Positions 1 through 52,493 of a stretch of 64,000 bases of DNA are shown here, piece after piece. The notes below the pieces were generated by a model, which saw nothing but the letters and a program-made list of their open reading frames with translations, did no database searches and was not told where the DNA came from. Made by a program: the position numbers and the translations under genes. Source of the stretch: Escherichia coli (lineage in GTDB: Bacteria; Pseudomonadota; Gammaproteobacteria; Enterobacterales; Enterobacteriaceae); assembly GCF_024502345.1 (NCBI RefSeq), contig NZ_JALDNN010000001.1; one strand, 5' to 3'. The stretch's first letter is position 1. Every line of letters starts with the position of its first letter.

Positions 1-31
1 GGGCAATCGTTAATGGACGCTGTTCAGTCAT
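1..31 (-). CDS. lpxB: lipid-A-disaccharide synthase LpxB, N-terminal 10 codons only (gene continues past the window start)
   Basis: Minus-strand ATG at 31..29 followed by codons [10 protein letters not shown]; the ATG overlaps the lpxA stop by 1 nt, as at the known lpxA-lpxB junction. Confidence 0.6.
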   Translation of the reverse strand, partial: MTEQRPLTIA

Positions 32-819
32 TAACGAATCAGACCGCGCGTTGAGCGTGCAAAGAAATCGGTAAAGGCTTTCACTTCCGGATATGTTTCC
101 GCCAGTTCAGCAATTTCCGGTTTCACTTCATCGAGCGTTTTACCGCTACGATAAATCAGCTTATACGCATTGCGGATAGCGGTAATCGCCTCACGGCTGA
201 ATCCGCGGCGCTTCAGCCCTTCGATATTGACACCGAACGGCGTTGCGTGGTTACCCTGCGCAATGACATAAGGAGGGACGTCCTGCGCCACACCGGAGCA
301 GCCGCCAACCATCACGTGCGCACCAATGATGCAGAACTGATGGACTGCGGTCATGCCGCCGATGATCGCGAAGTCGTCAACCGATACGTGACCCGCCAGC
401 GTTGCGTTGTTGGCGAGAATACAGCGGTTACCTACCGTACAATCGTGCGCAATGTGCGCGTTGATCATCAGTAAGTTGTCGCTGCCCACCTTCGTCAATC
501 CACCGCCCTGGACTGTGCCACGATGAATGGTGACGCTTTCGCGAATGCGGTTACGATCGCCGATTTCCACACGGGTCGGTTCGCCAGCATATTTCAGATC
601 CTGGTTAACTTCGCCGATGGAGGCGAACTGATAAATCTCATTATCGCGGCCAATTTTAGTATGACCATTCACGACAACGTGAGATTTCAGTACGGTACCC
701 TCACCAATTTCGACATGGGGTCCAACGATACAAAAAGGACCAATGTGTGCGTTCGCGCCAATTGACGCGCCCTCTTCCACAATGGCGGTTGGATGCACAA
801 AGGCGGATTTATCAATCAC
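31..819 (-). CDS. lpxA: UDP-N-acetylglucosamine O-acyltransferase LpxA
   Basis: 262-aa ORF with left-handed beta-helix hexapeptide repeats; full-length match to LpxA as recalled; sits in the lpxD-fabZ-lpxA-lpxB cluster. Confidence 0.97.
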
Positions 820-18256: not shown

Positions 18257-18569
18257 AAGTATGCACACGGGCAGCACGACGCTGCCCGATTGCTTTCTGG
18301 TTCAGAATAATTCGTCCTACTCATTCTTCCTCCCCCTTTTTTAAATACTTTTTCATCTTGTTTCGGACTGTCATGTAATTCGCAAAACGAAGATAAATGT
18401 GCTAATCCATCCCATGGAATATCGCCACAATAAAGCAGGTAATTTTTTGATTTTTACGCCATGATAGAAGTCTGGAAGAAAAAGGCTTTCTGCGATCACA
18501 GTCGAGCCGGGCGGGCCAGGCCAAATGCTAAAATAAGCACAATTTACTGACTCATTTTGAGGTAACGCT

Positions 18570-23511: not shown

Positions 23512-24210
23512 ATGAAAATCGGCATCATTGGTGCAATGGAAGAAGAAGTTACGCTGCTGCGTGACAAAATCGAAAACCGTCAAACTATCAGTCTCGGCGG
23601 TTGCGAAATCTATACCGGCCAACTGAATGGAACCGAGGTTGCGCTTCTGAAATCGGGCATCGGTAAAGTCGCTGCGGCGCTGGGTGCCACTTTGCTGTTG
23701 GAACACTGCAAGCCAGATGTGATTATTAACACCGGTTCTGCCGGTGGCCTGGCACCAACGTTGAAAGTGGGCGATATCGTTGTCTCGGACGAAGCACGTT
23801 ATCACGACGCGGATGTCACGGCATTTGGTTATGAATACGGTCAGTTACCAGGCTGTCCGGCAGGCTTTAAAGCTGACGATAAACTGATCGCTGCCGCTGA
23901 GGCCTGCATTGCCGAACTGAATCTTAACGCTGTACGTGGCCTGATTGTTAGCGGCGACGCTTTCATCAACGGTTCTGTTGGTCTGGCGAAAATCCGCCAC
24001 AACTTCCCACAGGCCATTGCTGTAGAGATGGAAGCGACGGCAATCGCCCATGTCTGCCACAATTTCAACGTCCCGTTTGTTGTCGTACGCGCCATCTCCG
24101 ACGTGGCCGATCAACAGTCTCATCTTAGCTTCGATGAGTTCCTGGCTGTTGCCGCTAAACAGTCCAGCCTGATGGTTGAGTCACTGGTGCAGAAACTTGC
24201 ACATGGCTAA
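23512..24210 (+). CDS. mtn: 5'-methylthioadenosine/S-adenosylhomocysteine nucleosidase
   Basis: 232-aa ORF starting [25 protein letters not shown]. Confidence 0.97.
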
Positions 24211-25710: not shown

Positions 25711-26055
25711 TTAGATGCTAAAGGAAGAACCGCAACCGCAGGTGCTTTTCGCGTTCGGGTTGGTCACGATGAAACGAGAACCTTCCAGTCCTTCGGTGTA
25801 GTCAACGGAACCGCCGACCAGATATTGCAGGCTCATCGGATCAACCACCAGGCCAACGCCCTGTTTTTCGATGGTCATATCGCCTTCGTTCACCTGATCA
25901 TCAAAGGTGAAACCATACTGGAAGCCGCTGCAACCGCCACCGGTGATATACACGCGTAATTTCAGATTCGGGTTATCTTCGTCAGCGATCAGGCTTTTAA
26001 CTTTGTTGGCTGCTGCGTCGGTAAACTCCAGCGGCAGTGCTACGTCATCACTCAT
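25711..26055 (-). CDS. erpA: iron-sulfur cluster insertion protein ErpA
   Basis: 114-aa product from the ATG at 26055..26053 ([11 protein letters not shown]…); A-type carrier with C-terminal CGCGSSF. Confidence 0.95.
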
Positions 26056-26136
26056 ATTTTGCTCCAAACGACATCGGCAATTGGGCAAATTCTAACCCAA
26101 TAATAATCGCCATTATCTAATACCCTGGTATTTCGT

Positions 26137-27576
<1,440 letters not shown>

Positions 27577-27782
27577 TCATACAAATAAGATGACGGCATT
27601 TTACTCGCACGTTCCATGAAAATCCTTTGCAAAGCGTAATGTTTCAAATGCACAAAACTTTTATACTCTAAGAAATCAGGATTGCACCAGTACAAGCAGC
27701 CTGATGTTTGACGAGTATTTAACTTGTTATGAATAACATAGAATAGCAGCCATTCACTTTTTCTACGAATCAGGAACCCTCC

Positions 27783-29063: not shown

Positions 29064-29070
29064 TGATTTT

Positions 29071-29091
29071 GCCTCGCCCACCGGGCGAGGC
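29071..29091 (+). terminator. hairpin terminator between convergent hemL and fhuB
   Basis: Perfect inverted repeat GCCTCGCCC-ACCG-GGCGAGGC followed by a T-rich run on the plus strand. Confidence 0.5.
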
Positions 29092-29097
29092 ATTCTA

Positions 29098-31080
29098 TTA
29101 ACGGCTCTGCTTTCTCAACAAATAGATAAAATATGGCGCGCCGATAAAGGTCGACAGCAGCCCTGCCGGGATCTGGAATGGAAACAGCACCATCCGCCCA
29201 CACCAGTCAGCGAACACCAGCAGTAAACCACCCACCAGCGCCGAAATTACGATGTGTGGCATCGTCCGTCGAAAGCCCATCATCCGCGCAATATGCGGTG
29301 CCATTAAACCAACAAAACTCAACGGTCCAATAGTCATCGTCGCGGTCGCCGTCAGGCAAGCCGCTAACAGCAGCAGCGCAATTCGCGTCGGCGTCAGCGC
29401 CATTCCTACGGCTCGGGCGGTATCACCACCCAGCGGTAAAATGGTCAGCCAGCGGCGGCACAGCGGGGTAATCGCCAGCAAAATCACCATCACAATTCCG
29501 GTGCGCCAGACCTGCGCATCGGTCGCGTTGTAGGTCGAACCGGAAATCCAGGTCAGCACTTGCGCCATTCGCGGGTCACCACTTGCCTGCAACATCATCA
29601 AAAGCATGGTGAACGCGGTGCTTAACGCCATCCCCGCCAGTAACATGCGGTGTGGGGAAAATCCACCGCGGCCGGCGGCGATCATAATGATCAACAGCGT
29701 CACCGCCGCGCCGAGACTGCCTGCAGGTAACAGCCAGCCAAAGGCATTACCCGGCACCAGAAACAGCATCAACACCACGCCAAACGCCGCGCCGGAGCTA
29801 ATCCCCAGCACTTCCGGGCTTGCCATCGGGTTTCCGGTCAGCCGCTGAATAATACAGCCCGCCACCGCCAGCATGACGCCCGCAAACAGCGCCGCCATAA
29901 TTCGCGGCCAGCGCCAGGGCATTAAATCCTCGAGCAACGCCCCGCTCGCCCACGTCCAGCCGTGCGCATCACGACCAAACGACAGCGCCACTACCACAGC
30001 CATCAACAGCAGCACGCCGCCCGCGAGGGCAAACGCCAGCACATGTTGGCGTTCAGTCGCGACACGATCGTTGACCTTCATATCCGGCGCGCTAATGCTG
30101 CGTAAACGCGGCAGCAGCCACAGTAGCAGCGGCGCACCGATCAACGCAGTGACCGAACCGGTGGAAACTTCCATCCACACGCGAGTCAGCCAGAGGATGA
30201 TTTGATCAGAAAGCCACAGAATTAACGCACCAATCAGCGACGCCAGCATCAACCGTGGCAACAAACGCCGCGCCCCCAGCATTTTTGCCAGCAGTGGCGC
30301 GAACAACCCGATAAAGCCGATAATCCCCACTGCGTTCACCAGCAGCGCACTGATGACTATCGCCAGCGACAGCGCCGCCAGACGCGCGAGCGACAAGGCC
30401 AGCCCGAGATTGCGCGCCACGCCATCATCAAGCCCCATCAGGGTTAACGGGCGAAGTAGCAATAACGTCAACATCACGCCGCCCAGCAACTGCGGCCATA
30501 AACGCTCAACGCCGCCCCAGTTGGTTTGCGTCAGCGTTCCGGTGCTCCACAGGAACATGCTTTGCAGCTGGTCGTGATGGAAGATAACCAGTAGCTGATT
30601 AATTGCCCCGCAATAAAGGCTCACCACCAGCCCCGCGAGAATAAGCGTAACCGGCGAAAGCCGTTTCCCCCACGCGACGCCAAAGACGATTAAGCCAACG
30701 ACACAAGCGCCCACCAGTGCGGCAAACTGGCTCGCCATAGCACCTGGGATCGCCCAAAGTGTGGTGACGGTAATTCCCAGTTGCGCGCCTGTAGCAACGC
30801 CAAGTGTCGTCGGTTCCGCCAGCGGATTACGCAGCACTTGCTGAAACAGCACGCCCACCAGCCCCAGGCCTGCGCCCACCAGCAGCGAAATCGCCAGACG
30901 CGGCAACAAGCTGTAGTGAAAAATCATCTGCTCGATGACGTCAATATCCGGCGACCAGGCGGCCTGCGCCCACTGACTGCGCGGCAGCGCCTGTGAGAAG
31001 TTCATCCAGGTTAGCGCCGTAGCGACAATCACTAACAGCGCCAGCAATAACGCCGGGAAAAGCGCAATTCGTTTCCTCAC
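29098..31080 (-). CDS. fhuB: ferric hydroxamate ABC transporter permease FhuB
   Basis: 660-aa double-permease ORF; start overlaps the fhuD stop by 4 nt. Confidence 0.97.
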   Translation of the reverse strand: MRKRIALFPALLLALLVIVATALTWMNFSQALPRSQWAQAAWSPDIDVIEQMIFHYSLLPRLAISLLVGAGLGLVGVLFQQVLRNPLAEPTTLGVATGAQLGITVTTLWAIPGAMASQFAALVGACVVGLIVFGVAWGKRLSPVTLILAGLVVSLYCGAINQLLVIFHHDQLQSMFLWSTGTLTQTNWGGVERLWPQLLGGVMLTLLLLRPLTLMGLDDGVARNLGLALSLARLAALSLAIVISALLVNAVGIIGFIGLFAPLLAKMLGARRLLPRLMLASLIGALILWLSDQIILWLTRVWMEVSTGSVTALIGAPLLLWLLPRLRSISAPDMKVNDRVATERQHVLAFALAGGVLLLMAVVVALSFGRDAHGWTWASGALLEDLMPWRWPRIMAALFAGVMLAVAGCIIQRLTGNPMASPEVLGISSGAAFGVVLMLFLVPGNAFGWLLPAGSLGAAVTLLIIMIAAGRGGFSPHRMLLAGMALSTAFTMLLMMLQASGDPRMAQVLTWISGSTYNATDAQVWRTGIVMVILLAITPLCRRWLTILPLGGDTARAVGMALTPTRIALLLLAACLTATATMTIGPLSFVGLMAPHIARMMGFRRTMPHIVISALVGGLLLVFADWCGRMVLFPFQIPAGLLSTFIGAPYFIYLLRKQSR

Positions 31081-31967
31081 GCTTTACCTCCGATGGCGTT
31101 ATCCAGAACACGCACAAAGTGCATTGCCGAAAGCGTTGCACCATAAAACCAGACTGCGGGTACGTGCTGAAAGCGCCCTGTACGGACAAACGGCATGGCC
31201 TGCCACAGCGGGGTCGCCATTAGCGCATCCATGTCTTTGCTGTTGTCGTGATCAAAACAGAGCACATCAACGTCTTTATACGCCGCCAGACGATCGATAC
31301 TGACGGCGGTACTGCCCCAGAAGTTGGTTTCCCCTTGCCAGGCATTTGGGATGCCGTACTCATCGAGAATTTCCTGGAACAAGCTGTTTGGACCGAAGAC
31401 CAGCATATGGCGCGGATCGATAAGCGTCGTCAGCAGTAACGGGCGTGCACCACGCTTCACAAAGCGGGGTTTCATGCTGCGGATAAAGTCTTCGTATTGC
31501 GCTAAATGCGTTTCCGCTGCGCTTTGCAGGTTAAGTAAATCTGCCATTTCCGTCAGCGATTTACGCGCCATCGCCAACGGCTGTTTGCCGTCACTGAAGT
31601 TAAATCCGCGCCCCGGCGCAATACGTGCCAGCATTTCTGATGAAGGGCCATATCCTGCCGACCAGACCATAAACGACGGTTTCATTTCGGTCAGCAGTTC
31701 AAGGTTAGGTTCTGTACGCAAACCGACGTCAATCACTGAGTCCGGCAATGGTGGTTCGCTGACCCACAGGCGATAGTTGATGGTATCCGCCACGCCGTAA
31801 GGCACGATGCCGAGCGCCAGCAGTAATTCCACCGGCAACCACTCCAGCGCCACAATACGATTGGGGTCAATAGCCGCCGCGTGGGCGGTATTCATCTGCC
31901 ATAACAACGGAGAAAGCGCCATCGCCGTTAACAGTCGACGGCGCGAAATAAGAGGTAAGCCGCTCAT
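31077..31967 (-). CDS. fhuD: ferric hydroxamate periplasmic binding protein FhuD
   Basis: 296-aa product from the second ATG (MSGLPLISRRRLLTAMALSPLLW… Tat-like signal); its ATG overlaps the fhuC stop by 1 nt. Confidence 0.95.
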   Translation of the reverse strand: MSGLPLISRRRLLTAMALSPLLWQMNTAHAAAIDPNRIVALEWLPVELLLALGIVPYGVADTINYRLWVSEPPLPDSVIDVGLRTEPNLELLTEMKPSFMVWSAGYGPSSEMLARIAPGRGFNFSDGKQPLAMARKSLTEMADLLNLQSAAETHLAQYEDFIRSMKPRFVKRGARPLLLTTLIDPRHMLVFGPNSLFQEILDEYGIPNAWQGETNFWGSTAVSIDRLAAYKDVDVLCFDHDNSKDMDALMATPLWQAMPFVRTGRFQHVPAVWFYGATLSAMHFVRVLDNAIGGKA

Positions 31968-32764
31968 CAATAAACAAAACTCACAGGTGCAGCACCCGCC
32001 GGATGCGGCAAAATACCCATCGGGATGCCATAAATCATTTCGAGGGTTTCGCCGCGCATAATTTCCGCAGGCGTTCCCTGAGCAATCATTTCACCACCGC
32101 GCAGGGCGACCAGATAATCACAGTAGCGTGCCGCCATATTGATATCGTGCAGCACGGCAATGACCGTCAGGCCACGTTCCTGACTTAAACGGTGCACCAG
32201 CGCCAGCACATCAACCTGGTGGGCGATATCCAGCGCCGAAGTCGGTTCGTCGAGCAACAGACAACGGCTATCCTGCGCCACCAGCATGGCGATCCACGCC
32301 CGCTGACGTTCGCCGCCAGAGAGACTATCGACCAGCCGATGCGCCAGCGGTTTTAAGCCAACCAGCGAGATAGCTTCCTCGACCTTTTCGCGATCTGCCG
32401 CACCAAAGCGCCCCAGCGCGCCATGCCACGGGTAACGACCAATCGCCACCAGTTCACGCACGGTCATCCCTTCTGCCGGAGGAAGCTGCTGCGGCAAATA
32501 AGCCACTTTGCGGGCAAACGCTTTGCTGCTCCAGCTTTCCAGCGGCTGGGCATCAAGAAGAATCTCCCCTTCTGACGGAGGCTGATGACGGCCAAGCATT
32601 TTGAGCAGAGTGGATTTACCAGAACCGTTGTGACCAATCAGACCGGTCACTTTCCCGGTAGGAAAGGTTAACGACAGCGGATGCAAAAGCGTGCGCCCGG
32701 GCACACGAAAGGAGATATTACGCAGTGCAAAAGTGGTATCGGAATGATTCGTGTATTCCTGCAT
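31967..32764 (-). CDS. fhuC: ferric hydroxamate ABC transporter ATPase FhuC
   Basis: 265-aa product from the ATG at 32764..32762 (MQEYTNHSDTTFALRNISF…); Walker A GHNGSGKST and ABC signature LSGGERQR. Confidence 0.95.
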   Translation of the reverse strand: MQEYTNHSDTTFALRNISFRVPGRTLLHPLSLTFPTGKVTGLIGHNGSGKSTLLKMLGRHQPPSEGEILLDAQPLESWSSKAFARKVAYLPQQLPPAEGMTVRELVAIGRYPWHGALGRFGAADREKVEEAISLVGLKPLAHRLVDSLSGGERQRAWIAMLVAQDSRCLLLDEPTSALDIAHQVDVLALVHRLSQERGLTVIAVLHDINMAARYCDYLVALRGGEMIAQGTPAEIMRGETLEMIYGIPMGILPHPAGAAPVSFVY

Positions 32765-32814
32765 AACAGCCAACTTGTGAAATGGGCACGGAAATCCGTG
32801 CCCCAAAAGAGAAA

Positions 32815-35004
32815 TTAGAAACGGAAGGTTGCGGTTGCAACGACCTGACGTTCTGCGCCCCAGAAGCAGCCATAAGTCTGGAAGCAACTGGCAACATACT
32901 CACGATCGAGCAAATTGTTGACGTTCACAGCAAGGCTGGATCCCGCCATACCAAAGCGTGCCAGATCATATTTTACAACAGCATCCATTACAGCTGCGCT
33001 ACCCACTTTAAAAGTGTTTGCCGGATCACCATAGCTGGAACCAATAAAACGACCACCTGTTCCCAATGTTAAACCAGAAAGCGGCCCTTCATTGAAGGTA
33101 TAATCCCCCCAGAGAGATGCCATATGCTCCGGTACTTGTTCTGGAGTTTTACCTTTGAGATTGGTGTCTTTGGTGTATTCCGCATCGGTGTAGGTATAAG
33201 AAGCCGTCAAGTTAATATTGGCATTTAACGCCGCTTTTGCTTCAAGTTCCACACCACGAGCGCGAATCTCACCTGCTGGGACTTGCGCTAATGGGTTTGT
33301 TGGGTCTGCTGTCAGGTTATTTGTTTTCGTCAATTGATAGACTGCGCCCGTAACAACGACCGGCATATCATTCGGAACATATTTTACGCCAGCTTCATAC
33401 TGTTCACCTTTCGATGGCTTATAGGAAATGCGCGGGTTGCTCCACAGATCGAAAGCACTCGGTTCAAAGGACTGGCTATAGCTAAAGTAAGGTGAAATAC
33501 CATTATCGAATAAGTAATTTACACCACCGCGCCAGGTGAACTGATGATCATTGCGCTCAATATAACCTTCAGTCGGCGTATAAGAGTTTTCACGAACAGT
33601 GGTCGCTTGCTTAGACCAATCGTAGCGTCCCCCCAGAGTGAATACCCATTTATTCCATTCCGCCTGATCCTGAACATAAATACCTGTTTGTTTGCTTTCA
33701 TTCATCTGGTATGGCTCTGCGCTACCAAATGCAAAGTATTCAGGGTGATATTTGTTATAAAGATCGATGGATGGTGCGGATCCAAAGCTGGCATTGATAT
33801 CATTACGCATCCGCATGAAGTCTACCCCTGTCAGCAAAGTATGCTCGACGTCACCTGTAGCAAACTTACTTTCAAGTTGGGTATCAACGCTAAAGTTTTG
33901 TAGACGCTCATTATCCACCACTGTCCCGCGGTTTAGGGTATGACCATCACCAGCAATCCCTGTGCCATAAACACTTTTCTGTGAGGTTTTCATTTCACTG
34001 AAACGCAGATTCTGACGCACGGTGAAGGTGTCATTAAAACCATGTTCAAAACTATATCCCACCATTTTCTGGTTACGGGAGTATGTATTATTCGATGCAC
34101 CTTCATTGAAGTCAGTCGGTAGACGCTTACCATTAGGCAATGGCTCAACGGTCCCCTCTTTCGGCAACCAACCGTAATAACCCGTTTCTGGTTCATTCTG
34201 GAAATAGGACAGGAAAGTAAAATTGGTTTTGTCGTCTGGACGCCATGAGAATGATGGAGCAATGGTATAACGCTGAGATTCAGAGTTTTTCTGCTGTTCG
34301 TTTGTTGAGCGAGCGAGGCCCGTCAAACGGTAAGAGAACTCACCGTTATCATCCAGTGCATCACTGAAATCGAATCCGGTCTGAAACAGATTATCCGTCC
34401 CCATTTTAAACTGAATTTCTTTCAGGGGTTCAGTGGTCGGACGTTTACTCACCATAGAAATAATCCCACCAGGATTACTTTTTCCATAGAGAACAGACGT
34501 CGGCCCACGCATCAGTTCAACCCTCTCGAGCATGTAAGGATCAATCACAGCATCGTTATAAAAGTTGCCCTGAAGTTTTAGTCCATCAAGGTAATTATTT
34601 TGATTCAGACCAACAGATGAGAAACCACGAATGATAACAAAATCATATGTATTAGAAGCACCACGACTGCTAACCGTAACGCCAGGTGTATAACCTAATG
34701 CTTCTTTTACAGACTGAAATTGATGCATCTGCATCTCTTCATTTGTCACAACCGAAATAGACTGCGGCGTTTTTTCAATTGGTGTATCCGTTTTAGTCGC
34801 AGTAGCAGAGTGCTTCGCCGCAATAGTTGCAGCAGGCCCCCATGCGCTTTCTTGCGGCGCAGGTGCAGCGGTAACGGTGATAGTGTCTTCTTTCGGTTCA
34901 ACCGCTGCCTGTGCATAAACAGACATGCCGCTAACCGCTGTGGCTACTACAACTGCGATTTTACGCAGTGAGTGTTTTGGCTGAGCAGTTTTGGAACGCG
35001 CCAT
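32815..35004 (-). CDS. fhuA: ferrichrome outer membrane transporter FhuA, divergent mosaic allele (729 aa)
   Basis: TonB-dependent receptor with signal peptide and C-terminal …VVATATFRF; the N-terminal ~60 and C-terminal ~30 residues match the K-12 protein as recalled, while the central plug/barrel/loop region is substituted throughout and shorter. Confidence 0.93.
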   Translation of the reverse strand: MARSKTAQPKHSLRKIAVVVATAVSGMSVYAQAAVEPKEDTITVTAAPAPQESAWGPAATIAAKHSATATKTDTPIEKTPQSISVVTNEEMQMHQFQSVKEALGYTPGVTVSSRGASNTYDFVIIRGFSSVGLNQNNYLDGLKLQGNFYNDAVIDPYMLERVELMRGPTSVLYGKSNPGGIISMVSKRPTTEPLKEIQFKMGTDNLFQTGFDFSDALDDNGEFSYRLTGLARSTNEQQKNSESQRYTIAPSFSWRPDDKTNFTFLSYFQNEPETGYYGWLPKEGTVEPLPNGKRLPTDFNEGASNNTYSRNQKMVGYSFEHGFNDTFTVRQNLRFSEMKTSQKSVYGTGIAGDGHTLNRGTVVDNERLQNFSVDTQLESKFATGDVEHTLLTGVDFMRMRNDINASFGSAPSIDLYNKYHPEYFAFGSAEPYQMNESKQTGIYVQDQAEWNKWVFTLGGRYDWSKQATTVRENSYTPTEGYIERNDHQFTWRGGVNYLFDNGISPYFSYSQSFEPSAFDLWSNPRISYKPSKGEQYEAGVKYVPNDMPVVVTGAVYQLTKTNNLTADPTNPLAQVPAGEIRARGVELEAKAALNANINLTASYTYTDAEYTKDTNLKGKTPEQVPEHMASLWGDYTFNEGPLSGLTLGTGGRFIGSSYGDPANTFKVGSAAVMDAVVKYDLARFGMAGSSLAVNVNNLLDREYVASCFQTYGCFWGAERQVVATATFRF

Positions 35005-42339: not shown

Positions 42340-42367
42340 TTACAGCCGTTCCATCACGTTTACCACA

Positions 42368-42395
42368 GGCGGGAAATGCTCCCGCCTTATTTTTT
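42368..42395 (+). terminator. intrinsic terminator downstream of dksA
   Basis: Hairpin GGCGGGA-aatgc-TCCCGCC followed by TTATTTTTT; the first in-frame ATG of the gluQ ORF lies in its loop. Confidence 0.7.
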
Positions 42396-43302: not shown

Positions 43303-43361
43303 GCTATGATTAGCCGCTATTTTTTTGTCCTGAATGATGTTTGACACTACCGAGGTGTACT

Positions 43362-44759
43362 ATTTTTACCCGAGTCGCTAATTTTTGCCGCAAGGTGCTA
43401 AGCCGCGAGGAAAGCGAGGCTGAACAGGCAGTCGCCCGTCCACAGGTGACGGTGATCCCGCGTGAGCAGCATGCTATTTCCCGCAAAGATATCAGTGAAA
43501 ATGCCCTGAAGGTAATGTACAGGCTCAACAAAGCGGGATACGAAGCCTGGCTGGTTGGCGGCGGCGTGCGCGACCTGTTACTTGGCAAAAAGCCGAAAGA
43601 TTTTGACGTAACCACTAACGCCACGCCTGAGCAGGTGCGCAAACTGTTCCGTAACTGCCGCCTGGTGGGTCGCCGTTTCCGTCTGGCTCATGTAATGTTT
43701 GGCCCGGAGATTATCGAAGTTGCGACCTTCCGTGGACACCACGAAGGTAACGTCAGCGACCGCACGACCTCCCAACGCGGGCAAAACGGCATGTTGCTGC
43801 GCGACAACATTTTCGGCTCCATCGAAGAAGACGCCCAGCGCCGCGATTTCACTATCAACAGCCTCTATTACAGCGTAGCGGATTTTACCGTCCGTGATTA
43901 CGTTGGCGGTATGAAGGATCTGAAGGACGGCGTTATCCGTCTGATTGGTAACCCGGAAACGCGCTACCGTGAAGATCCGGTACGTATGCTGCGCGCGGTA
44001 CGTTTTGCCGCCAAATTGGGTATGCGCATCAGCCCGGAAACCGCAGAACCGATCCCTCGCCTCGCTACCCTGTTGAACGATATCCCACCGGCACGCCTGT
44101 TTGAAGAATCGCTTAAACTGCTACAAGCGGGCTACGGTTACGATACCTATAAGCTGTTGTGTGAATATCATCTGTTCCAGCCGCTGTTCCCGACCATTAC
44201 CCGCTACTTCACGGAAAATGGCGACAGCCCGATGGAGCGGATCATTGAACAGGTGCTGAAGAATACCGATACGCGTATCCATAACGATATGCGCGTGAAC
44301 CCGGCGTTCCTGTTTGCCGCCATGTTCTGGTACCCACTGCTGGAGACGGCACAGAAGATTGCCCAGGAAAGCGGCCTGACCTATCACGACGCTTTCGCGC
44401 TGGCGATGAACGACGTGCTGGACGAAGCCTGCCGTTCACTGGCAATCCCGAAACGTCTGACGACGTTAACCCGCGATATCTGGCAGTTGCAGTTGCGTAT
44501 GTCCCGTCGTCAGGGTAAACGCGCATGGAAACTGCTGGAGCATCCTAAGTTCCGTGCGGCTTATGACCTGTTGGCCTTGCGAGCTGAAGTTGAACGTAAC
44601 GCTGAACTGCAGCGTCTGGTGAAATGGTGGGGTGAGTTCCAGGTTTCCGCGCCACCAGATCAAAAAGGGATGCTTAACGAGTTGGATGAAGAGCCGTCAC
44701 CGCGTCGCCGTACTCGTCGTCCACGCAAACGCGCACCGCGTCGTGAGGGTACCGCATGA
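43362..44759 (+). CDS. pcnB: poly(A) polymerase I, AUU (ATT) initiation codon
   Basis: 465-aa product if initiation is at ATT 43362..43364 ([11 protein letters not shown]…), the start reported for K-12 pcnB; the ORF track begins at an upstream TTG (43341); stop overlaps the folK start by 4 nt. Confidence 0.88.
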
Positions 44760-45238
44760 CAGTTGCGTATATTGCCATAGGCAGCAATCTGGCCTCTCCG
44801 CTGGAGCAGGTCAATGCTGCCCTGAAAGCATTAGGCGATATCCCTGAAAGCCACATTCTTACCGTTTCTTCGTTTTACCGCACCCCACCGCTGGGGCCGC
44901 AAGATCAACCCGATTACTTAAACGCAGCCGTGGCGCTGGAAACAACACTTGCGCCTGAAGAATTACTTAATCACACACAGCAAATAGAGTTGCAGCAAGG
45001 TCGCGTTCGTAAAGCAGAACGCTGGGGACCGCGCATACTCGATCTTGATATCATGTTGTTTGGTAATGAAACCATTAATACCGAACGACTCACCGTCCCG
45101 CATTACGATATGAAGAATCGCGGCTTTATGCTGTGGCCGCTGTTTGAGATTGCCCCGGAACTCGTGTTTCCTGATGGGGAGACATTACGTGAAATACTCA
45201 CTTCGCTAGCAGTACTACAACCTGCCATCTGGTATTAG
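44756..45238 (+). CDS. folK: 6-hydroxymethyl-7,8-dihydropterin pyrophosphokinase FolK, variant C-terminus
   Basis: 160-aa ORF matching HPPK through about residue 140 (…[13 protein letters not shown]) and then diverging from the K-12 tail as recalled. Confidence 0.9.
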
Positions 45239-45519
45239 CTGTATTATTTTATTTTCTTATCTTACTCCTCACTTCCCCTCTTACAGATTAAATATACTTA
45301 ATTTACATTTTAGTTTTTTTTAATTAATTCATGAAATAGCACTTCATGCAAATAGATTAGGCATTTTTTGTTTAAAAAACCTAGAATAACAACAATTCAA
45401 TACACCACGTAAATATATTCACACAAGTGATACCTCTCCCCCTATTACATCCTTCCCCGACTTTAAGTAATATCCGCTCGCAATATTAATTTCGTATAAT
45501 TTTTGTAAGGATGCATGTA

Positions 45520-46116
45520 ATGAAAAAAGCACTTCTCGCAGCCGCTTTAGTAATGGCTTCTGGTTCCGCCTTGGCTGTAGATGGTGGTCATATCGACTTT
45601 AACGGTATGGTACAGTCCGGTACCTGTAAAGTGGGTGTGGTAGATACCGGTATGCACAGCGTTACCACTGATGGCGTGGTTACCCTGGATACTGCGAATG
45701 TTACTGATACTTTTACTGAAGTAAGTGCAACTGCTGTTGGTTTACTGCCGAAAGAGTTCATGATTTCTGTTGAGTGTGATCCAGGTGCTCCGAAGAATGC
45801 TGAGTTGACTATGGGTTCTGCAAGCTACGCGAACACCAGCGGTACCCTGAATAACAATATGAACATCACTGTTAACGGTATTGCACCGGCTCAGAACGTG
45901 AACATTGCAGTTCATAACATGAAAAACAAAGCTGGCGCTGCTGAAATTAAGCAGGTCCATATGAACAACTCTTCTGAAGTTCAGGAACTGACATTAGACG
46001 CAGAAGGTAAAGGTCAGTACGTGTTTAACGCATCTTACGTTAAAGCACCGAACAGCCCGGCTGTTACTGCTGGTCATGTAACCACTAACGCACTGTACAC
46101 CATTGCTTATAAATAA
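45520..46116 (+). CDS. yadN: fimbrial major subunit (YadN-like, chaperone-usher pilin)
   Basis: 199-aa product from the ATG at 45520 (signal peptide MKKALLAAALVMASGSALA; an SD-like TAAGG lies 9 nt upstream); C-terminal pilin strand …YTIAYK; first gene of the operon. Confidence 0.8.
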   Translation: MKKALLAAALVMASGSALAVDGGHIDFNGMVQSGTCKVGVVDTGMHSVTTDGVVTLDTANVTDTFTEVSATAVGLLPKEFMISVECDPGAPKNAELTMGSASYANTSGTLNNNMNITVNGIAPAQNVNIAVHNMKNKAGAAEIKQVHMNNSSEVQELTLDAEGKGQYVFNASYVKAPNSPAVTAGHVTTNALYTIAYK

Positions 46117-46202
46117 TTAATGGTGTGTTGAGCATAAGGTTTGCCGCCAGGCAGACCTTATTTTCGCTAATTTAATCTTTCTACAGACAGCAAGGAGTGC
46201 TT

Positions 46203-46928
46203 ATGTTTCCCTTGGTTAAAAAAACGGTTAGTGCATTATTTGTAAGTACTCTGTTAGCCAGTGCGCCTGCATTCGCTGACATTATTATTTCCGGAACTCG
46301 TATCATTTATAACGCTGATAAAAAAGATGTTAACGTTCGTCTGGAAAATAAAGGGAATCGCCCCTTACTGATTCAGAACTGGTTGGATACTGGCGACGAC
46401 AATGCCGATCCCAGCCAGATCAAAGTGCCATTTACCTCTACGCCGCCTGTTTCACGCGTTGAGCCAAAACGCGGTCAAACCGTAAAAGTGATGTACACCG
46501 GTGCAACAGCCCTGCCTAAAGACCGGGAAAGTGTCTACTGGTTTAACGTGCTGGAAGTGCCGCCTAAGCCGAAAGATGCTGAGTCTGACAAAAACTTATT
46601 ACAATTGGCTTTCCGCACACGCATCAAACTCTTTTATCGCCCGAGCGGTTTACAGGGAGAACCGGCTGAAGCACCGGCGAAAATCACCTGGAAATTAAAC
46701 AACGCTCAGTTACAGGCAAATAACCCAACGCCATATTACGTGTCCTTTAATGAGGTCAAGCTGGAAAGTGGCGGCAAAACCTACAACGTCAATTCCAGCA
46801 TGGTCGCGCCGTTCAGCCAGGCAAGCTTTCGCGTAACCGGTCTACCAGGAAGCGTTTCATCCGGGAAAGTGATCTTTAAAGCGATCAACGACTTTGGCGG
46901 CAACATCGATGGTTCCGCAACATTGTAA
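46203..46928 (+). CDS. yadV: fimbrial periplasmic chaperone (PapD-like; EcpD/YadV-like)
   Basis: ATG at 46203 preceded by AAGGAG at 5-nt spacing; PapD-like chaperone sequence with the conserved block WFNVLEVPPKP…LLQLAFRTRIKLFYRP. Confidence 0.85.
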   Translation: MFPLVKKTVSALFVSTLLASAPAFADIIISGTRIIYNADKKDVNVRLENKGNRPLLIQNWLDTGDDNADPSQIKVPFTSTPPVSRVEPKRGQTVKVMYTGATALPKDRESVYWFNVLEVPPKPKDAESDKNLLQLAFRTRIKLFYRPSGLQGEPAEAPAKITWKLNNAQLQANNPTPYYVSFNEVKLESGGKTYNVNSSMVAPFSQASFRVTGLPGSVSSGKVIFKAINDFGGNIDGSATL

Positions 46929-46969
46929 AAAATAAACGGATTCTTTTTAACATCGCCAGGAATGCAACC

Positions 46970-49570
46970 TTGTACCAGTTTACTCATCAAATAAGCCGTA
47001 TCCCGAAAAAAACGCTACTTGCGGCCTGTTGTGCCCTGTTTTATAGCAGCAACGGTGCTGCGGCAGACACGGTGGAATATGACAGTTCCTTCTTAATGGG
47101 AACTGGCGCATCAACGATTGATGTTAAACGTTATGCTCAAGGCAACCCGACACCCCCGGGCCTCTATAATGTCCGCGTGTTTGTAAACGGTCAGGCGACG
47201 TCCAGCTTAGAAATTCCGTTTGTGGATATTGGCGAAGCCAGCGCAGCGGCCTGTATTACCCACAAAAACCTGGCGCAACTCCACATAAAGCAACCTGAAC
47301 AGCCTGTCACTTTACTCGCCAGAGAAGGTGAAGAAGAGGATTGTCTGGATTTGGCAAAGTCATACGAAAAGGCGGATGTGCGCTTTGACGGCAGTGACCA
47401 GTTTCTCGATCTGACTATTCCTCAGGCCTATGTTCTGAAAAACTACGGTGGTTATGTCGACCCCTCACTGTGGGAGTCAGGGATTAACGCTGCCACACTG
47501 GCATATACCCTGAACGCCTATCATACAAGTTCAAATAACGACAATAGTGACAGCGCCTATGGCGCATTTAACTCAGGTATCAATTTAGGAGCCTGGCACT
47601 TCCGTGCGCGCGGTAACTATAACTGGACAACAGATAACGGCAGCGATTTCGATTTCCAGGATCGTTACTTACAGCGTGACATTCCGGCAATCCGTTCACA
47701 GATAATTATGGGTGATGCCTATACCACCGGTGAAACATTTGACTCTGTCAACGTCCGCGGCGTTCGCCTGTACAGCGATAGCCGTATGCTGCCTTCGGCG
47801 CTGGCCAGTTACGCTCCGACCATCCGCGGTGTAGCAAACTCCAACGCCAAAGTCACCGTGACGCAAAGCGGTTATAAAATCTATGAAACCACCGTACCAC
47901 CCGGTGAATTTGTTATAGACGACATTAGCCCCTCCGGCTTTGGTAGCGAACTGGTCGTGACCATTGAAGAAGCGGATGGTTCCAAACGCACCTTTACGCA
48001 ACCCTTCTCGTCGGTTGTACAAATGCAACGTCCTGGTGTGGGCCGTTGGGATTTCAGCGCGGGTAAAGTCATTGATGACAGTCTGCGATCCGAACCCAAT
48101 ATGGGACAAGCCTCTTATTACTATGGTCTGAATAACCTCTTCACGGGTTATACCGGTATTCAGTTCACCGATAATAACTATCTTGCCGGGCTGTTAGGTG
48201 TGGGTATCAACACCAGCATCGGTGCCTTTGCGGTAGACGTTACCCATTCCCGTGCTGAAATTCCGGATGATAAAACCTACCAGGGGCAAAGTTATCGCGT
48301 GACCTGGAACAAATTATTCCAGGATACCGGGACATCATTTAACCTCGCGGCGTACCGCTATTCCACCCAAGATTACCTGGGCCTGCATGATGCGTTAGTC
48401 CTCATTGACGACGCCAAACATTTGTCTGCCGATGAAGACAAAAACACCATGCAGACGTACTCACGTATGAAAAACCAGTTTACCGTCAGCATCAACCAGC
48501 CGCTGAAAACGACTTACGAAGATTACGGTTCACTGTTTATTTCTGGTAGCTGGACGGATTACTGGGCGGCGAACAATAGCCGCACTGAATATAATGTTGG
48601 TTACAGTAAAAGCGTTTCGTGGGGCAGTTTCAGCGTCAACCTGCAACGTAGCTGGAATGAAGACGGCGAGAAAGATGACGCGATGTACGTCAGCGTTAGC
48701 GTACCTATTGAGAATATTTTAGGTGGCAAACGTAAGTCTTCTGGTTTCCGCAATTTAAATACTCAGCTCAATACCGATTTCGATGGTTCACATCAGTTGA
48801 ATGTTAACAGTTCCGGTAACACTGAAAACAATCTGGTGAACTACAGTGTCAACGCAGGTTATAGCCTCGATAAAAACTCCGGCGATTTAGCCTCTGTTGG
48901 TGGTTATCTCAACTATGAATCAGGGTTAGGCGGTATTTCCGCTTCGGCCTCGGCCACTTCGGATAACAGCCAACAGTACTCCATCTCCACCGATGGAGGC
49001 TTTGTATTACACAGTGGTGGTTTAACGTTCACTAACAACAGTTTCAGCAGTAACGACACGCTGGTGTTAATCAACGCCCCAGGTGCTAAAGGCGCACGAA
49101 TCAATAACAGTAATAACGAAATCGATCGCTGGGGATATGCCGTGACGTCCTCTGTCAGCCCCTACCGTGAAAACCGGGTAGGTCTGAACATTGAAACACT
49201 GGAAAACGATGTTGAACTGAAAAGTACCAGCGCCACCACCGTACCACGTAGCGGCTCCGTTGTTTTGACCCGGTTCGAAACTGACGAGGGGCGTTCTGTC
49301 GTGCTGAATATTACTGCCGCCAATGGCAAATCTATTCCGTTTGCTGCGGAGGTTTACCAGGATGACGTGATGATCGGCAGCATGGGCCAGGGTGGTCAGG
49401 CATTTGTGCGCGGTATTAACGACAGCGGGGAATTAATCGTGCGTTGGTATGAAAACAACCAAACCATTGACTGTAAGTTGCACTACCAGTTCCCGGCCCA
49501 GCCACAAACGCTGGGAAGTACCAACACCTTATTACTTAATAATCTTACCTGTCAGGTAGCAAATCACTAA
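46970..49570 (+). CDS. htrE: fimbrial outer membrane usher (HtrE-like)
   Basis: 866-aa ORF, TTG start, usher-family length and sequence blocks (…RMLPSALASYAPTIRGVANSNAKVTVTQSGYKIYETTVPPG…). Confidence 0.88.
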   Translation: MYQFTHQISRIPKKTLLAACCALFYSSNGAAADTVEYDSSFLMGTGASTIDVKRYAQGNPTPPGLYNVRVFVNGQATSSLEIPFVDIGEASAAACITHKNLAQLHIKQPEQPVTLLAREGEEEDCLDLAKSYEKADVRFDGSDQFLDLTIPQAYVLKNYGGYVDPSLWESGINAATLAYTLNAYHTSSNNDNSDSAYGAFNSGINLGAWHFRARGNYNWTTDNGSDFDFQDRYLQRDIPAIRSQIIMGDAYTTGETFDSVNVRGVRLYSDSRMLPSALASYAPTIRGVANSNAKVTVTQSGYKIYETTVPPGEFVIDDISPSGFGSELVVTIEEADGSKRTFTQPFSSVVQMQRPGVGRWDFSAGKVIDDSLRSEPNMGQASYYYGLNNLFTGYTGIQFTDNNYLAGLLGVGINTSIGAFAVDVTHSRAEIPDDKTYQGQSYRVTWNKLFQDTGTSFNLAAYRYSTQDYLGLHDALVLIDDAKHLSADEDKNTMQTYSRMKNQFTVSINQPLKTTYEDYGSLFISGSWTDYWAANNSRTEYNVGYSKSVSWGSFSVNLQRSWNEDGEKDDAMYVSVSVPIENILGGKRKSSGFRNLNTQLNTDFDGSHQLNVNSSGNTENNLVNYSVNAGYSLDKNSGDLASVGGYLNYESGLGGISASASATSDNSQQYSISTDGGFVLHSGGLTFTNNSFSSNDTLVLINAPGAKGARINNSNNEIDRWGYAVTSSVSPYRENRVGLNIETLENDVELKSTSATTVPRSGSVVLTRFETDEGRSVVLNITAANGKSIPFAAEVYQDDVMIGSMGQGGQAFVRGINDSGELIVRWYENNQTIDCKLHYQFPAQPQTLGSTNTLLLNNLTCQVANH

Positions 49571-49571
49571 T

Positions 49572-50132
49572 ATGGAAAATTCTATGAAAAGGATACTACT
49601 AACATCCGCGTTAATAGGCCTGGGTTTACCGGCGGTTGGCTCTGCAACAGATCTTAATGTCGATTTTACGGCCACCGTATTAGCCACCACCTGCACGATA
49701 ACTATCGTACAAGATGGTGGCCCAGTAGTGACGGGTAGTAACGGTGAATATAGCCTGACAATTCCCGATGTTGGCCTGGATAAAGTTATAACTGGAGATG
49801 TTGCAGCTCAAGCCAACTTTAAATTACTGGCTTCCGATTGCAGCAATGGTTACTCAAAGATTTTTACCACACTTACAGGTGCATCTGTTTCAGGTAAGTT
49901 GATTGTCAATGAAGCAAGCTCTGGCGCTACTGGTGTGGGTATGGGGATTAAGCGTAGAGATACCGCAGACTCAACTTTCTTTACACCCAATAATACTGAC
50001 AAATTTGAATGGACCACCGATGAGAAAGCTAACGGTGTGCCTCTAACCGTAGCACTGCGCGAAACAACGGCGGGAGCAGGACGCACCGGTGCGTTTCAGG
50101 CAAAAGCCACCTTTAACTTCACCTACGAATAA
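49572..50132 (+). CDS. yadM: fimbrial minor subunit (YadM-like)
   Basis: 186-aa ORF with signal peptide, a Cys pair and C-terminal …ATFNFTYE pilin donor-strand motif; second ATG at 49584 possible. Confidence 0.78.
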   Translation: MENSMKRILLTSALIGLGLPAVGSATDLNVDFTATVLATTCTITIVQDGGPVVTGSNGEYSLTIPDVGLDKVITGDVAAQANFKLLASDCSNGYSKIFTTLTGASVSGKLIVNEASSGATGVGMGIKRRDTADSTFFTPNNTDKFEWTTDEKANGVPLTVALRETTAGAGRTGAFQAKATFNFTYE

Positions 50133-50146
50133 CAGGGACAGCCACC

Positions 50147-50758
50147 ATGAAATTAAAAGTCATCGCTACACTGATTGCCACTGTTGCCGTGGGTGCCAGC
50201 GTTAGCAACAATCTCGCTTATGCGGGTACGACATCCGCCTCTTTAACCGTAAACAGTAACCTGACTATGGGTACCTGTAGTGCGAAGATACTGGATACCA
50301 GTGATACCGTGACCGATACCGTTGCCTTTAACAATGTTTATATTTCTGAACTGGCAGCCAAAAGCAAGGTACAACCATTTAAAATCCGTTTCAGCGATTG
50401 CGCCGGTCTTCCAGGAAAAAGTGCTCAACTCGTATTGGCACCCAAAGGTATCGGTTGCGCTGGCGGCATGTCTAACACTGCCGGCTTTGCAAATAAACTT
50501 AACTCCACCACCGAAGGTGGTTCAAGCGGAGCAGCTGTCGAAGTATGGACGACTACGACCCCCGGGGGAAGTGGCAGTAAGCAATTCAGTTGCATTCAGC
50601 GAAACGTCGTCAATGTCGATCTTTCTAATGCCAGCACAACACAGCCTTATGATTTCGATTTAAGCGCGCGGATGATTCTCGCTGAAGGGAGAACGGTTAA
50701 TGATGCATTACCGGGTAGTTTCCTCTCTCCTACGACTTTCACAATCACTTATCAGTAA
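50147..50758 (+). CDS. yadL: fimbrial minor subunit (YadL-like)
   Basis: 203-aa ORF with signal peptide and C-terminal …TTFTITYQ. Confidence 0.78.
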   Translation: MKLKVIATLIATVAVGASVSNNLAYAGTTSASLTVNSNLTMGTCSAKILDTSDTVTDTVAFNNVYISELAAKSKVQPFKIRFSDCAGLPGKSAQLVLAPKGIGCAGGMSNTAGFANKLNSTTEGGSSGAAVEVWTTTTPGGSGSKQFSCIQRNVVNVDLSNASTTQPYDFDLSARMILAEGRTVNDALPGSFLSPTTFTITYQ

Positions 50759-50778
50759 TAGCGGATAAGGATATTAGA

Positions 50779-51369
50779 ATGCTATGCAGGCATCATAAAT
50801 TTGTACGCTTTTTGGGGCTGGTAACAGCCCTCGTTACGCCTTTTGCCTATGCTGGCCAGGATGTGAATCTCACCGCGCAGATTGTGGCCAGTACCTGTCA
50901 GGTTGAAGTCAGTAATAATGGCGTTGTCGATCTCGGCACAGTGACGCTGGACTATTTTGCTGACAATGTGACCCCGACAACGGATTATGCGGGTGGCAAA
51001 ACGTTTAATGTTAATGTGGTCTCTTGCGATAACATTCAAACGACACAGTCGCAAATGAAATTAGATTTTCAGCCGCAGGCGGGATCGCTTGCGCAGGTGA
51101 ATAATCAAATTTTTAGTAATGAATATGAACAGCAGGCTACCGGGGCGAAAAACGTCGGCATTGTGATATTTTCGGCCCAGCCGAATCAGCAGACATTTAA
51201 CGTGCGAGGAACGGATGGTTCCTCAACAGCAATTTATTCGGTCGCGCCTGGCAACGCTGCTCCCTCAACCTGGACCTTTTATTCCCGTATGCAACGGGTG
51301 AATAATGCCCTTCCTCCTGAATCGGGAATGGTGAGAAGCCAGGTTATTGTTAATGTATCTTATGAATAA
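50779..51369 (+). CDS. yadK: fimbrial minor subunit (YadK-like)
   Basis: 196-aa ORF; SD-like TAAGGA 7 nt upstream; C-terminal …VIVNVSYE. Confidence 0.78.
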   Translation: MLCRHHKFVRFLGLVTALVTPFAYAGQDVNLTAQIVASTCQVEVSNNGVVDLGTVTLDYFADNVTPTTDYAGGKTFNVNVVSCDNIQTTQSQMKLDFQPQAGSLAQVNNQIFSNEYEQQATGAKNVGIVIFSAQPNQQTFNVRGTDGSSTAIYSVAPGNAAPSTWTFYSRMQRVNNALPPESGMVRSQVIVNVSYE

Positions 51370-51380
51370 TAAGGATAATT

Positions 51381-52493
51381 ATGCAAAGGAAAGGCAATAA
51401 ACTGTTAATTCAGTTATGCAGTGCGATACTGCTATTTTTTACCACATCCTGGTATGCATTGGCGACTGAATGTTATATAGAGAGCAATGCTGCAGGGGCT
51501 TATGATATTGTTATAAACCCAACTCCCTTCAGTATACAGTCAGCGATGGTCACAGTCCCGGAGGAAATATCTTTCGCGGCCTCGGATGTTCATATTGACC
51601 TTCGAGGGGATAAGATTGGCTGTAAATCCTTAGGTAGTAACACAAGCGCGGTACATTTTCTTAATACTGCTGATGCCAGTAACATATCTACCTACACTGA
51701 CAGTCACGGTAATGGTTTATTGAAAACAACCGTTACGGGTATTGTTTATTCAGTAGAATTACAATGTAGAAATTGTGGAGCCGCGGAGGATCTTAGTTTG
51801 ATGCTTCCAGCACAAAGCGGTGGAGATAATCATACAAGCAACTCTGATACAAAGTGGGCCTATGAGTATAGTGACGATAGCTGGTATTTACGATTTCGTT
51901 TTTTCTGGACCCCGGAATATAAACCCCAAAATGGGGTTTCAGAAGGATTTGCGATACCAGGTAAAATAGCCTCCTGGTATATAGGCAATGAGAATCAACC
52001 ATGGATAAATTTTTTCGTTGATACAAGCTCCCTGCATTTTTACGTGGAGGAACCCACCTGTCAAACAGTTGCCCTGGCACAAGATCAGGGTAATGTCAGC
52101 GGCAACCAGGTAACGCTTGGGAACAACTATGTTTCGGAAGTGAAAAATGGGCTTACGCGGGAAATTCCTTTTGCCATCCGCGCTGAATACTGTTATGCCA
52201 GTAAGATTACGGTTAAGTTGAAAGCGGCAAATAAGCCCAGCGACGCCACTCTGGTAGGTAAAACAACGGGCTCTGCTTCAGGCGTGGCTGTAAAAGTGCA
52301 TTCAACTTACGAAGACAGCAAAGTATTGTTAAAAGCAGATGGTAGCAACACGGTTGACTACAACTTCGCAATCTGGTCAAACAACCTGCTGAATTTGCCC
52401 TTTACGGCACAGTTGGTACCGGATGGCAGTGGTAATGCAGTCGGTGTTGGAACATTTTCAGGAAACGCGACCTTCTCCTTTACCTACGAATAA
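51381..52493 (+). CDS. yadC: fimbrial tip adhesin (YadC-like, two-domain)
   Basis: 370-aa ORF: N-terminal Cys-containing putative receptor-binding domain plus C-terminal pilin domain ending …ATFSFTYE; last gene of the operon. Confidence 0.75.
   Translation: MQRKGNKLLIQLCSAILLFFTTSWYALATECYIESNAAGAYDIVINPTPFSIQSAMVTVPEEISFAASDVHIDLRGDKIGCKSLGSNTSAVHFLNTADASNISTYTDSHGNGLLKTTVTGIVYSVELQCRNCGAAEDLSLMLPAQSGGDNHTSNSDTKWAYEYSDDSWYLRFRFFWTPEYKPQNGVSEGFAIPGKIASWYIGNENQPWINFFVDTSSLHFYVEEPTCQTVALAQDQGNVSGNQVTLGNNYVSEVKNGLTREIPFAIRAEYCYASKITVKLKAANKPSDATLVGKTTGSASGVAVKVHSTYEDSKVLLKADGSNTVDYNFAIWSNNLLNLPFTAQLVPDGSGNAVGVGTFSGNATFSFTYE

Follow-up and report, generated by a model that had tools for sequence, protein, structure and literature searches.

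Overlapping stop and start codons at gene junctions in the lpxA to gcd region of an Escherichia coli genome

The stretch analysed here, called the window below, is 64,000 nt of an Escherichia coli contig (NZ_JALDNN010000001.1, assembly GCF_024502345.1) that covers the lpxA...gcd region of the species in an orientation reversed relative to K-12. Our subject is the junctions within it at which the stop codon of one gene overlaps the start codon of the next, an arrangement that may tie the downstream gene's translation to that of its upstream neighbour. The gene map is the Prokaryotic Genome Annotation Pipeline (PGAP) annotation of NZ_CP062901.1, carried onto the window by BLAST, and a check of each coding sequence (CDS) found frame, start and stop intact in 58 of 58. 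NZ_CP062901.1 is also the closest genome (99.0%) to the 6.1-kb stretch around the fhuC/fhuD junction, which is matched in 5,424 of 5,426 complete E. coli genomes. Seven of the 47 same-strand junctions in the window (15%), lpxA/lpxB included, overlap. They are listed here with their spacing, where a negative value is an overlap in nucleotides.

29..33, minus strand: lpxA stop and lpxB start, TAATG, spacing -1 (TAA 33-31, ATG 31-29)
24203..24210, plus strand: mtnN/btuF overlap, ATGGCTAA, spacing -8 (btuF ATG at 24203, mtnN TAA 24208-24210)
26048..26055, minus strand: yadW/erpA overlap, with the erpA start 8 nt inside the small open reading frame (ORF) yadW
31077..31080, minus strand: fhuD stop (TGA) and fhuB start (GTG), GTGA, spacing -4
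31965..31969, minus strand: fhuC stop and fhuD start, TGATG, spacing -1 (TGA 31969-31967, ATG 31967-31965), without an upstream Shine-Dalgarno (SD) sequence
44756..44759, plus strand: pcnB stop and folK start, ATGA, spacing -4
58794..58797, minus strand: yadG stop and yadH start, ATGA, spacing -4, an ABC transporter ATPase gene followed by the permease gene

Six of these overlaps (fhuC/fhuD 1 nt, fhuD/fhuB 4 nt, lpxA/lpxB 1 nt, yadG/yadH 4 nt, pcnB/folK 4 nt and mtnN/btuF 8 nt) had been reported in a first-pass annotation of the window, and all are present with the lengths it gave. The range it placed them under, 31960-31972, holds only the fhuC/fhuD junction, where the minus strand reads ...TTATTGATGAGC, and the 8-nt yadW/erpA overlap is a seventh that was absent from its list. 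The lpxB gene runs past the window edge, leaving its first 10 codons, and the annotation of NZ_CP062901.1 likewise has lpxA and lpxB overlapping by 1 nt. Each of the seven junctions was read at single-base level and both of its ORFs were validated; every overlap is 1, 4 or 8 nt long and falls within the -8 to +10 spacing range. From codon logic (NTG starts and TAA, TAG or TGA stops) we infer that only overlaps of 1, 4, 7, 8, 10 and 11 nt are possible, and -1, -4 and -8 are the three spacings enriched across bacteria and archaea (PMC12548453, PMC10666635). The K-12 MG1655 annotation has the same overlaps at the four junctions that were checked there (yadG/yadH, pcnB/folK, fhuC/fhuD and fhuD/fhuB). 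Since the published overlap rate is also ~15% genome-wide in E. coli and most prokaryotes (PMC5318159, PMC6728339), the window is typical and is not enriched in overlaps. These are ordinary operon junctions of the -1/-4/-8 class that are already annotated, with nothing new to record.

Conservation was surveyed at the two fhu junctions by scanning one genome per species with FhuD, which gave 80 Enterobacteriaceae loci at 71-97% identity from genera including Escherichia, Citrobacter, Salmonella, Klebsiella, Enterobacter, Kosakonia, Kluyvera and Raoultella. The fhuC/fhuD spacing is -1 in all 80 species, in the form T(G/A)ATG (55 TGATG and 25 TAATG), and the fhuD/fhuB spacing is -4 in all 80, in the form NTGA (45 ATGA and 35 GTGA). 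Conservation of the fhuD ATG and the fhuB NTG throughout the survey supports both as genuine downstream starts. The eight codons that follow the fhuD ATG encode 60 distinct FhuD N-terminal octapeptides in the same 80 species, length changes included, and the fhuA-fhuC spacer, used as a control in the same genomes, comes in 12 lengths (44-56 nt, plus 512 nt in one). This invariance of the junctions fits a constraint acting on them but is not taken as proof: the spacer, ~50 nt long, has changed length ~11 or more times, from which we estimate that ~0.2-0.5 indel events are expected per single junction site, so 80/80 carries less weight than it seems to, and we toned down an initial reading of it as proof of selection. 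The two junctions also keep their different SD character across the survey. The predicted SD pairing energy has a median of -3.1 kcal/mol at fhuD, which is consistently SD-less, and a median of -10.2 kcal/mol (range -15.4 to -5.5) at fhuB, which has a strong SD throughout.

Within the window the SD elements of the downstream genes range from strong to absent. Three of them lie inside the upstream gene.

31087..31091, minus strand: fhuB SD GGAGG, within the Gly-Gly codons of the FhuD C-terminus, 6 nt 5′ of the GTG
44745..44749, plus strand: folK SD-like GAGGG, within the pcnB coding sequence
58805..58810, minus strand: yadH SD AAGGAG, within the yadG coding sequence

Pairing energies are strong for fhuB (-10.9 kcal/mol) and yadH (-8.5 kcal/mol), moderate for folK (-6.2 kcal/mol) and erpA (-5.6 kcal/mol, SD GGAG), and weak or absent for btuF (-5.1 kcal/mol), lpxB (-2.9 kcal/mol) and fhuD (-2.2 kcal/mol). 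As a measure of start accessibility we predicted how much free energy it takes to unfold positions -20..+12 around each start within a -100..+50 folding context. This opening energy has a median of 14.9 kcal/mol at the seven overlapped starts versus 9.3 kcal/mol at the window's 52 other starts (one-sided Mann-Whitney p=0.004), a comparison that stands on only seven overlapped starts, all of one window, and it is also higher than at 14 starts that follow gaps of 0-30 nt (p=0.017). Individual predictions are 9.5 kcal/mol for yadH, 14.9 for folK and 16.7 for btuF, with erpA average, and the SD-less junctions span 11.5-16.7 kcal/mol. Folding of the -99..+30 segments, both by minimum free energy (MFE) and as a centroid, predicts that the lpxB AUG lies in an 11-bp hairpin formed with codons 5-9 of lpxB, that a 9-bp hairpin takes up both the fhuB SD and its GUG, and that the starts of folK and btuF are likewise in stems. 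This sequestration of starts is predicted from single sequences and does not amount to a structure that is conserved and covaries.

In vivo data for K-12 bear on one pair. In the table of Burkhardt et al. 2017 (Supplementary file 1), lpxA/lpxB is the only complete overlapping pair (folK, btuF, the fhu genes and yadGH are not included), and the translation efficiency (TE) of lpxA (0.185) is nearly equal to that of lpxB (0.205), as expected under roughly 1:1 coupling. Other values in the same table are 0.50 for pcnB, 1.60 for mtn and 1.58 for erpA. FhuD, FhuB and BtuF were undetected in the proteome tables of Mori 2021, and a literature search on lpxA/lpxB coupling found nothing specific.

Taking the geometry, conservation, SD elements and predicted accessibility together, we infer some degree of coupling at most of these junctions, and we put the probability of this at about 70%. 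A ribosome ending the upstream gene would come to a halt on the next start codon or just a few bases beyond it; in arriving there it would melt local mRNA structure that otherwise hides that start, and/or, having terminated, it would re-initiate without leaving the mRNA. Dependence on the upstream gene would be strongest at fhuC to fhuD, lpxA to lpxB and mtnN to btuF, which have no usable SD and poorly accessible starts. It would be intermediate at fhuD to fhuB and pcnB to folK, where an SD is present and the start is predicted to be sequestered, and weakest at yadG to yadH and yadW to erpA, where an SD is present and the start accessible. Published work agrees with several parts of this picture. 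The -1, -4 and -8 overlaps have the geometry that favours coupling most. Coupling is most efficient at spacings of -4 to +3 (PMC12548453), and of the 5 native overlapping pairs of E. coli assayed with premature-stop reporters, 4 were coupled, with an SD usually helpful in the tested pairs and not always required (PMC6728339). Among pairs spaced -8..+10, those encoding subunits of heteromeric complexes show a 4.5-fold enrichment (PMC10666635), and the three of our seven overlapping pairs that encode ABC transporter subunits (fhuC/fhuD, fhuD/fhuB and yadG/yadH) fit that enrichment.

Beyond the small accessibility sample and the modest weight of the fhu invariance, several observations weigh against coupling at these junctions. 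The bioBF pair overlaps yet is uncoupled, so that overlap is insufficient for coupling (PMC6728339), and TE ratios scatter about as widely among 73 overlapping pairs as among 253 non-overlapping ones (p=0.06; PMC5318159). The literature we searched held no direct coupling experiment on any of these pairs, and a search on the mtn/btuF overlap returned nothing relevant. At lpxA/lpxB, K-12 mRNA levels are 1240 and 186, a 6.7-fold difference, so that ribosome density on the two genes is six-fold apart and their outputs are unequal. The output of this pair is thus not set by coupling alone, and the drop in mRNA from lpxA to lpxB suggests that the mRNA is processed, decays or is partly terminated near or at this junction.

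The structural evidence has its own shortcomings. Exceptional stability of the 129-nt junction segments (-99..+30) is unsupported: against dinucleotide shuffles their z-scores run from -1.9 to +0.5, no significant difference. RNAalifold found no consensus structure at fhuD/fhuB across the 80 species, and a conserved hairpin hiding the fhuB SD and GUG found no support, with pairing of 72.9% versus 73.0% in column shuffles and covariation of 0.129 versus 0.128. A terminator-like hairpin with a U-tract (31999-31983, minus strand), 13 nt 5′ of the fhuD ATG, was rejected as a conserved element: its two codon-wobble pairs are kept in only 32/72 and 31/72 distinct orthologous sequences, and its invariant pairs fall at constrained codon positions.

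The first-pass annotation had described these genes as tightly coupled operons. The geometry, the known operons and the polarity on record for fhu agree with the operon part of that description, fhuACDB being an operon with polar effects according to bioRxiv 10.1101/320069, a preprint that cites Mademidis & Koster 1998. The word "tightly" goes further than the evidence and is not established for any pair. The first-pass annotation had also named independent internal promoters and a lack of polarity as the outcome that would speak against coupling, and what we found speaks weakly against that outcome, as polar effects are reported and there is no promoter-like site just 5′ of fhuD, fhuB or folK. 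A promoter consensus scan gave no coding-strand site just 5′ of these three genes, with counts equal to those in shuffles, which makes the scan weak evidence either way.

It is possible, though we hold it only tentatively, that coupling at these junctions is specifically termination-reinitiation, in which the same ribosome (the 70S or its 30S) starts the downstream gene and so fixes protein ratios. Such a process has been proposed for -8..+10 junctions, where short fragments suffice (PMC6728339, PMC10666635). The SD-less fhuD, lpxB and btuF junctions, which are without signals to recruit a free 30S, would suit it, as would the equal TE of lpxA and lpxB. Set against this, depletion of ribosome recycling factor (RRF) left both reporter coupling and the genome-wide density ratios of overlapping pairs unchanged, a result that favours RNA unfolding followed by de novo initiation over reinitiation (PMC7538156). 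In addition, removal of the SD strongly cut reinitiation in 4 of the 5 pairs of Huber et al., and by that measure SD-less junctions would be inefficient if they worked in this way. The mechanism of coupling is still disputed (PMC12548453), with PMC6728339 and PMC10666635 for the same ribosome serving both cistrons and PMC7538156 against it.

Less probable, and in our view unlikely, is that the overlaps are by-products of compaction or mutation without function, and that free 30S subunits initiate the downstream genes de novo, independently of upstream translation. NTGA and TRATG form readily, since most of a stop codon is already contained in a start codon, and overlaps are as frequent in the window as in the genomic background. 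An SD is present at 4 of the 7 downstream genes here, erpA is highly translated (TE 1.58) behind a 21-codon ORF, and no covariation was found for any occluding structure; the uncoupled bioBF overlap and the TE ratios of overlapping pairs, which vary as much as those of other pairs, point the same way. Efficient independent initiation is nevertheless hard to explain for fhuD, lpxB and btuF, which have neither an SD nor an accessible start. The raised opening energy at overlapped starts (p=0.004), the equal TE of lpxA and lpxB and the coupling found at 4 of 5 tested E. coli overlaps also disagree with lack of function, as does a fhu junction geometry that is invariant in 80 species while the adjacent codons and the neighbouring spacer vary.

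It is very improbable that some of the overlaps are annotation artefacts with the true downstream start elsewhere (such as a later ATG or TTG in fhuD or btuF), for although ORF calling offers TTG 31970 (fhuD), TTG 24176 (btuF) and TTG 43341 (pcnB), and a few species have an extra in-frame ATG or TTG 11-17 nt downstream in fhuD, the fhuD ATG is at -1 in 80/80 species and the alternative TTG at -4 in only 31/80, nearly all species offer no candidate fhuB start besides the NTG at -4, the N-termini that follow from the annotated starts are standard (the FhuD signal peptide MSGLPLISRRRL, the BtuF signal peptide and LpxB MTEQRPL), and PGAP and the curated K-12 annotation agree at the four junctions checked in K-12.

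With coupling of most junctions to some degree as the preferred reading, two sets of junctions deserve separate discussion. At pcnB/folK, the first-pass annotation had considered the coupling notable on the grounds that pcnB itself initiates weakly. The start in question is non-canonical:

43362..43364, plus strand: pcnB start ATT, to which the PGAP start maps, with an SD GAGG at 43352-43355

The ATT and the GAGG are conserved in Salmonella, Citrobacter and Pseudocitrobacter, but not the upstream TTG (43341). Binns & Masters 2002, as cited in PMC2939334, showed the AUU start and also its limiting effect. The overlapping NTGA is kept in the same genera (ATGA in Salmonella, GTGA in Citrobacter and ATGA in Pseudocitrobacter), and the folK NTG start is thus conserved in three further genera; starts other than those surveyed rest on the PGAP and K-12 annotation. 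The SD-like element of folK is poorly conserved across genera, with variants GAGGG, GAAGG and GAGAG. The first-pass remark is half right: pcnB does initiate at a conserved ATT, but folK has an SD-like GAGGG of its own, and a limit on FolK output set by pcnB initiation is hypothetical. The pair has been treated as an operon subject to polarity (PMC11954867), while the TraDIS (sequencing of transposon-directed insertion sites) and CRISPR interference (CRISPRi) papers searched made no statement on pcnB polarity toward folK.

The surroundings of folK differ from K-12. Similarity to K-12 stops ~43 nt 5′ of the folK stop (window 45195-52493), FolK here has 160 aa and shares only ~90% identity with the form usual in E. 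coli, and the fimbrial operon 3′ of folK (45511-52493) is a divergent allele with 67-72% nucleotide identity to yadV/htrE of NZ_CP062901.1 and without a hit for the other yad genes. The position at which similarity ends suggests a putative recombination breakpoint inside folK. In Salmonella and Citrobacter panB-panC follow folK directly with no fimbrial operon between, and in Pseudocitrobacter, as in the window, a fimbrial operon follows folK.

At fhu, the FhuCDB complex has the composition FhuC2:FhuB1:FhuD1 (PMC8660799). One could propose that the invariant, SD-less fhuC to fhuD junction and the SD-assisted fhuD to fhuB junction form a ratio-setting device and, along the same lines, that the pcnB ATT caps FolK through the NTGA and so links folate synthesis to poly(A) polymerase expression. 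If this were true, an inefficient hand-over at fhuC to fhuD and an efficient one at fhuD to fhuB would give FhuC:FhuD:FhuB near 2:1:1. We consider this proposal decidedly doubtful. For the fhuB-fhuA stretch (29098-35004), identity reaches at least 99% in just 6 of 5,424 E. coli genomes and is 90-95% in 4,545, and FhuA has 729 aa here versus 747 aa in K-12. This pattern fits the reported mosaic exchange of fhuA alleles.

The window contains other features of interest around its junctions. Non-ATG starts are common, with GTG at lpxA, skp, frr, fhuB, hrpB and panC, TTG at fabZ and cdsA, and ATT at pcnB. Tight same-strand junctions that do not overlap are found at fabZ/lpxA (+3, 820-822), skp/lpxD (+3, 2409-2411) and between the fimbrial usher and the next subunit (+1, 49571), and seven further same-strand junctions are spaced +11 to +14. 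The small ORFs yadW (21 codons, 26048-26113) and yadX (15 codons, 27570-27617) are both present, the former overlapping erpA by 8 nt and the latter ending 11 nt 5′ of clcA, and it is possible that yadW/erpA and yadX/clcA are upstream-ORF arrangements. Strong terminator-like hairpins lie between dksA and gluQRS (42367-42387, 8 pairs and then a T-run) and between the convergent hemL and fhuB (29070-29092, 10 pairs). The yaeI gene is absent, with a 128-nt unrelated stretch (18292-18419) in place of the 841 nt that carry yaeI between dapD and yaeH in NZ_CP062901.1, and just downstream of rpnC there is a ~170-nt fragment (54389-54558) that is 75-84% like the 3′ end of the adjacent rpnC.

These junctions are standard textbook material for E. 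coli operons and have little importance beyond housekeeping. In practical terms, engineering or knocking out fhuC, fhuD, lpxA, pcnB, mtnN or yadG can be expected to affect the gene downstream, and the last codons of the upstream gene should be retained. The SD-less fhuC/fhuD, lpxA/lpxB and mtnN/btuF junctions would also be clean natural systems in which to tell reinitiation from RNA unfolding.

A useful comparison is with the coupled E. coli pairs trpB-trpA, galT-galK, prfA-prmC, rplK-rplA, hyfHI, astDB, ydbH/ynbE as well as menDH. Like the window pairs, these have close or overlapping stop and start codons, predicted structure around the downstream start and a variable SD contribution; their dependence on upstream translation has been measured (PMC6728339, PMC7538156), whereas that of the window pairs would follow from the features described above. 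Most of the tested E. coli pairs relied on an SD, unlike the fhuD, lpxB and btuF junctions, which do without one. The overlapping but uncoupled pair bioB-bioF likewise combines a start/stop overlap with a very weak SD. That junction is predicted to be unstructured (PMC6728339), while the SD-less junctions of the window are predicted to be poorly accessible (11.5-16.7 kcal/mol). With the generic "spatially coupled ORFs" of prokaryotes (Huber et al. 2019/2023; Brown & Wade 2025) the agreement is complete at the level of structure. The window junctions show the same strand arrangement, spacings (-4 NTGA, -1 TRATG and -8) and motifs, some of their SDs likewise lie inside the upstream gene, complex subunits are enriched among them (here fhuCDB and yadGH) and their frequency of 15% is alike.

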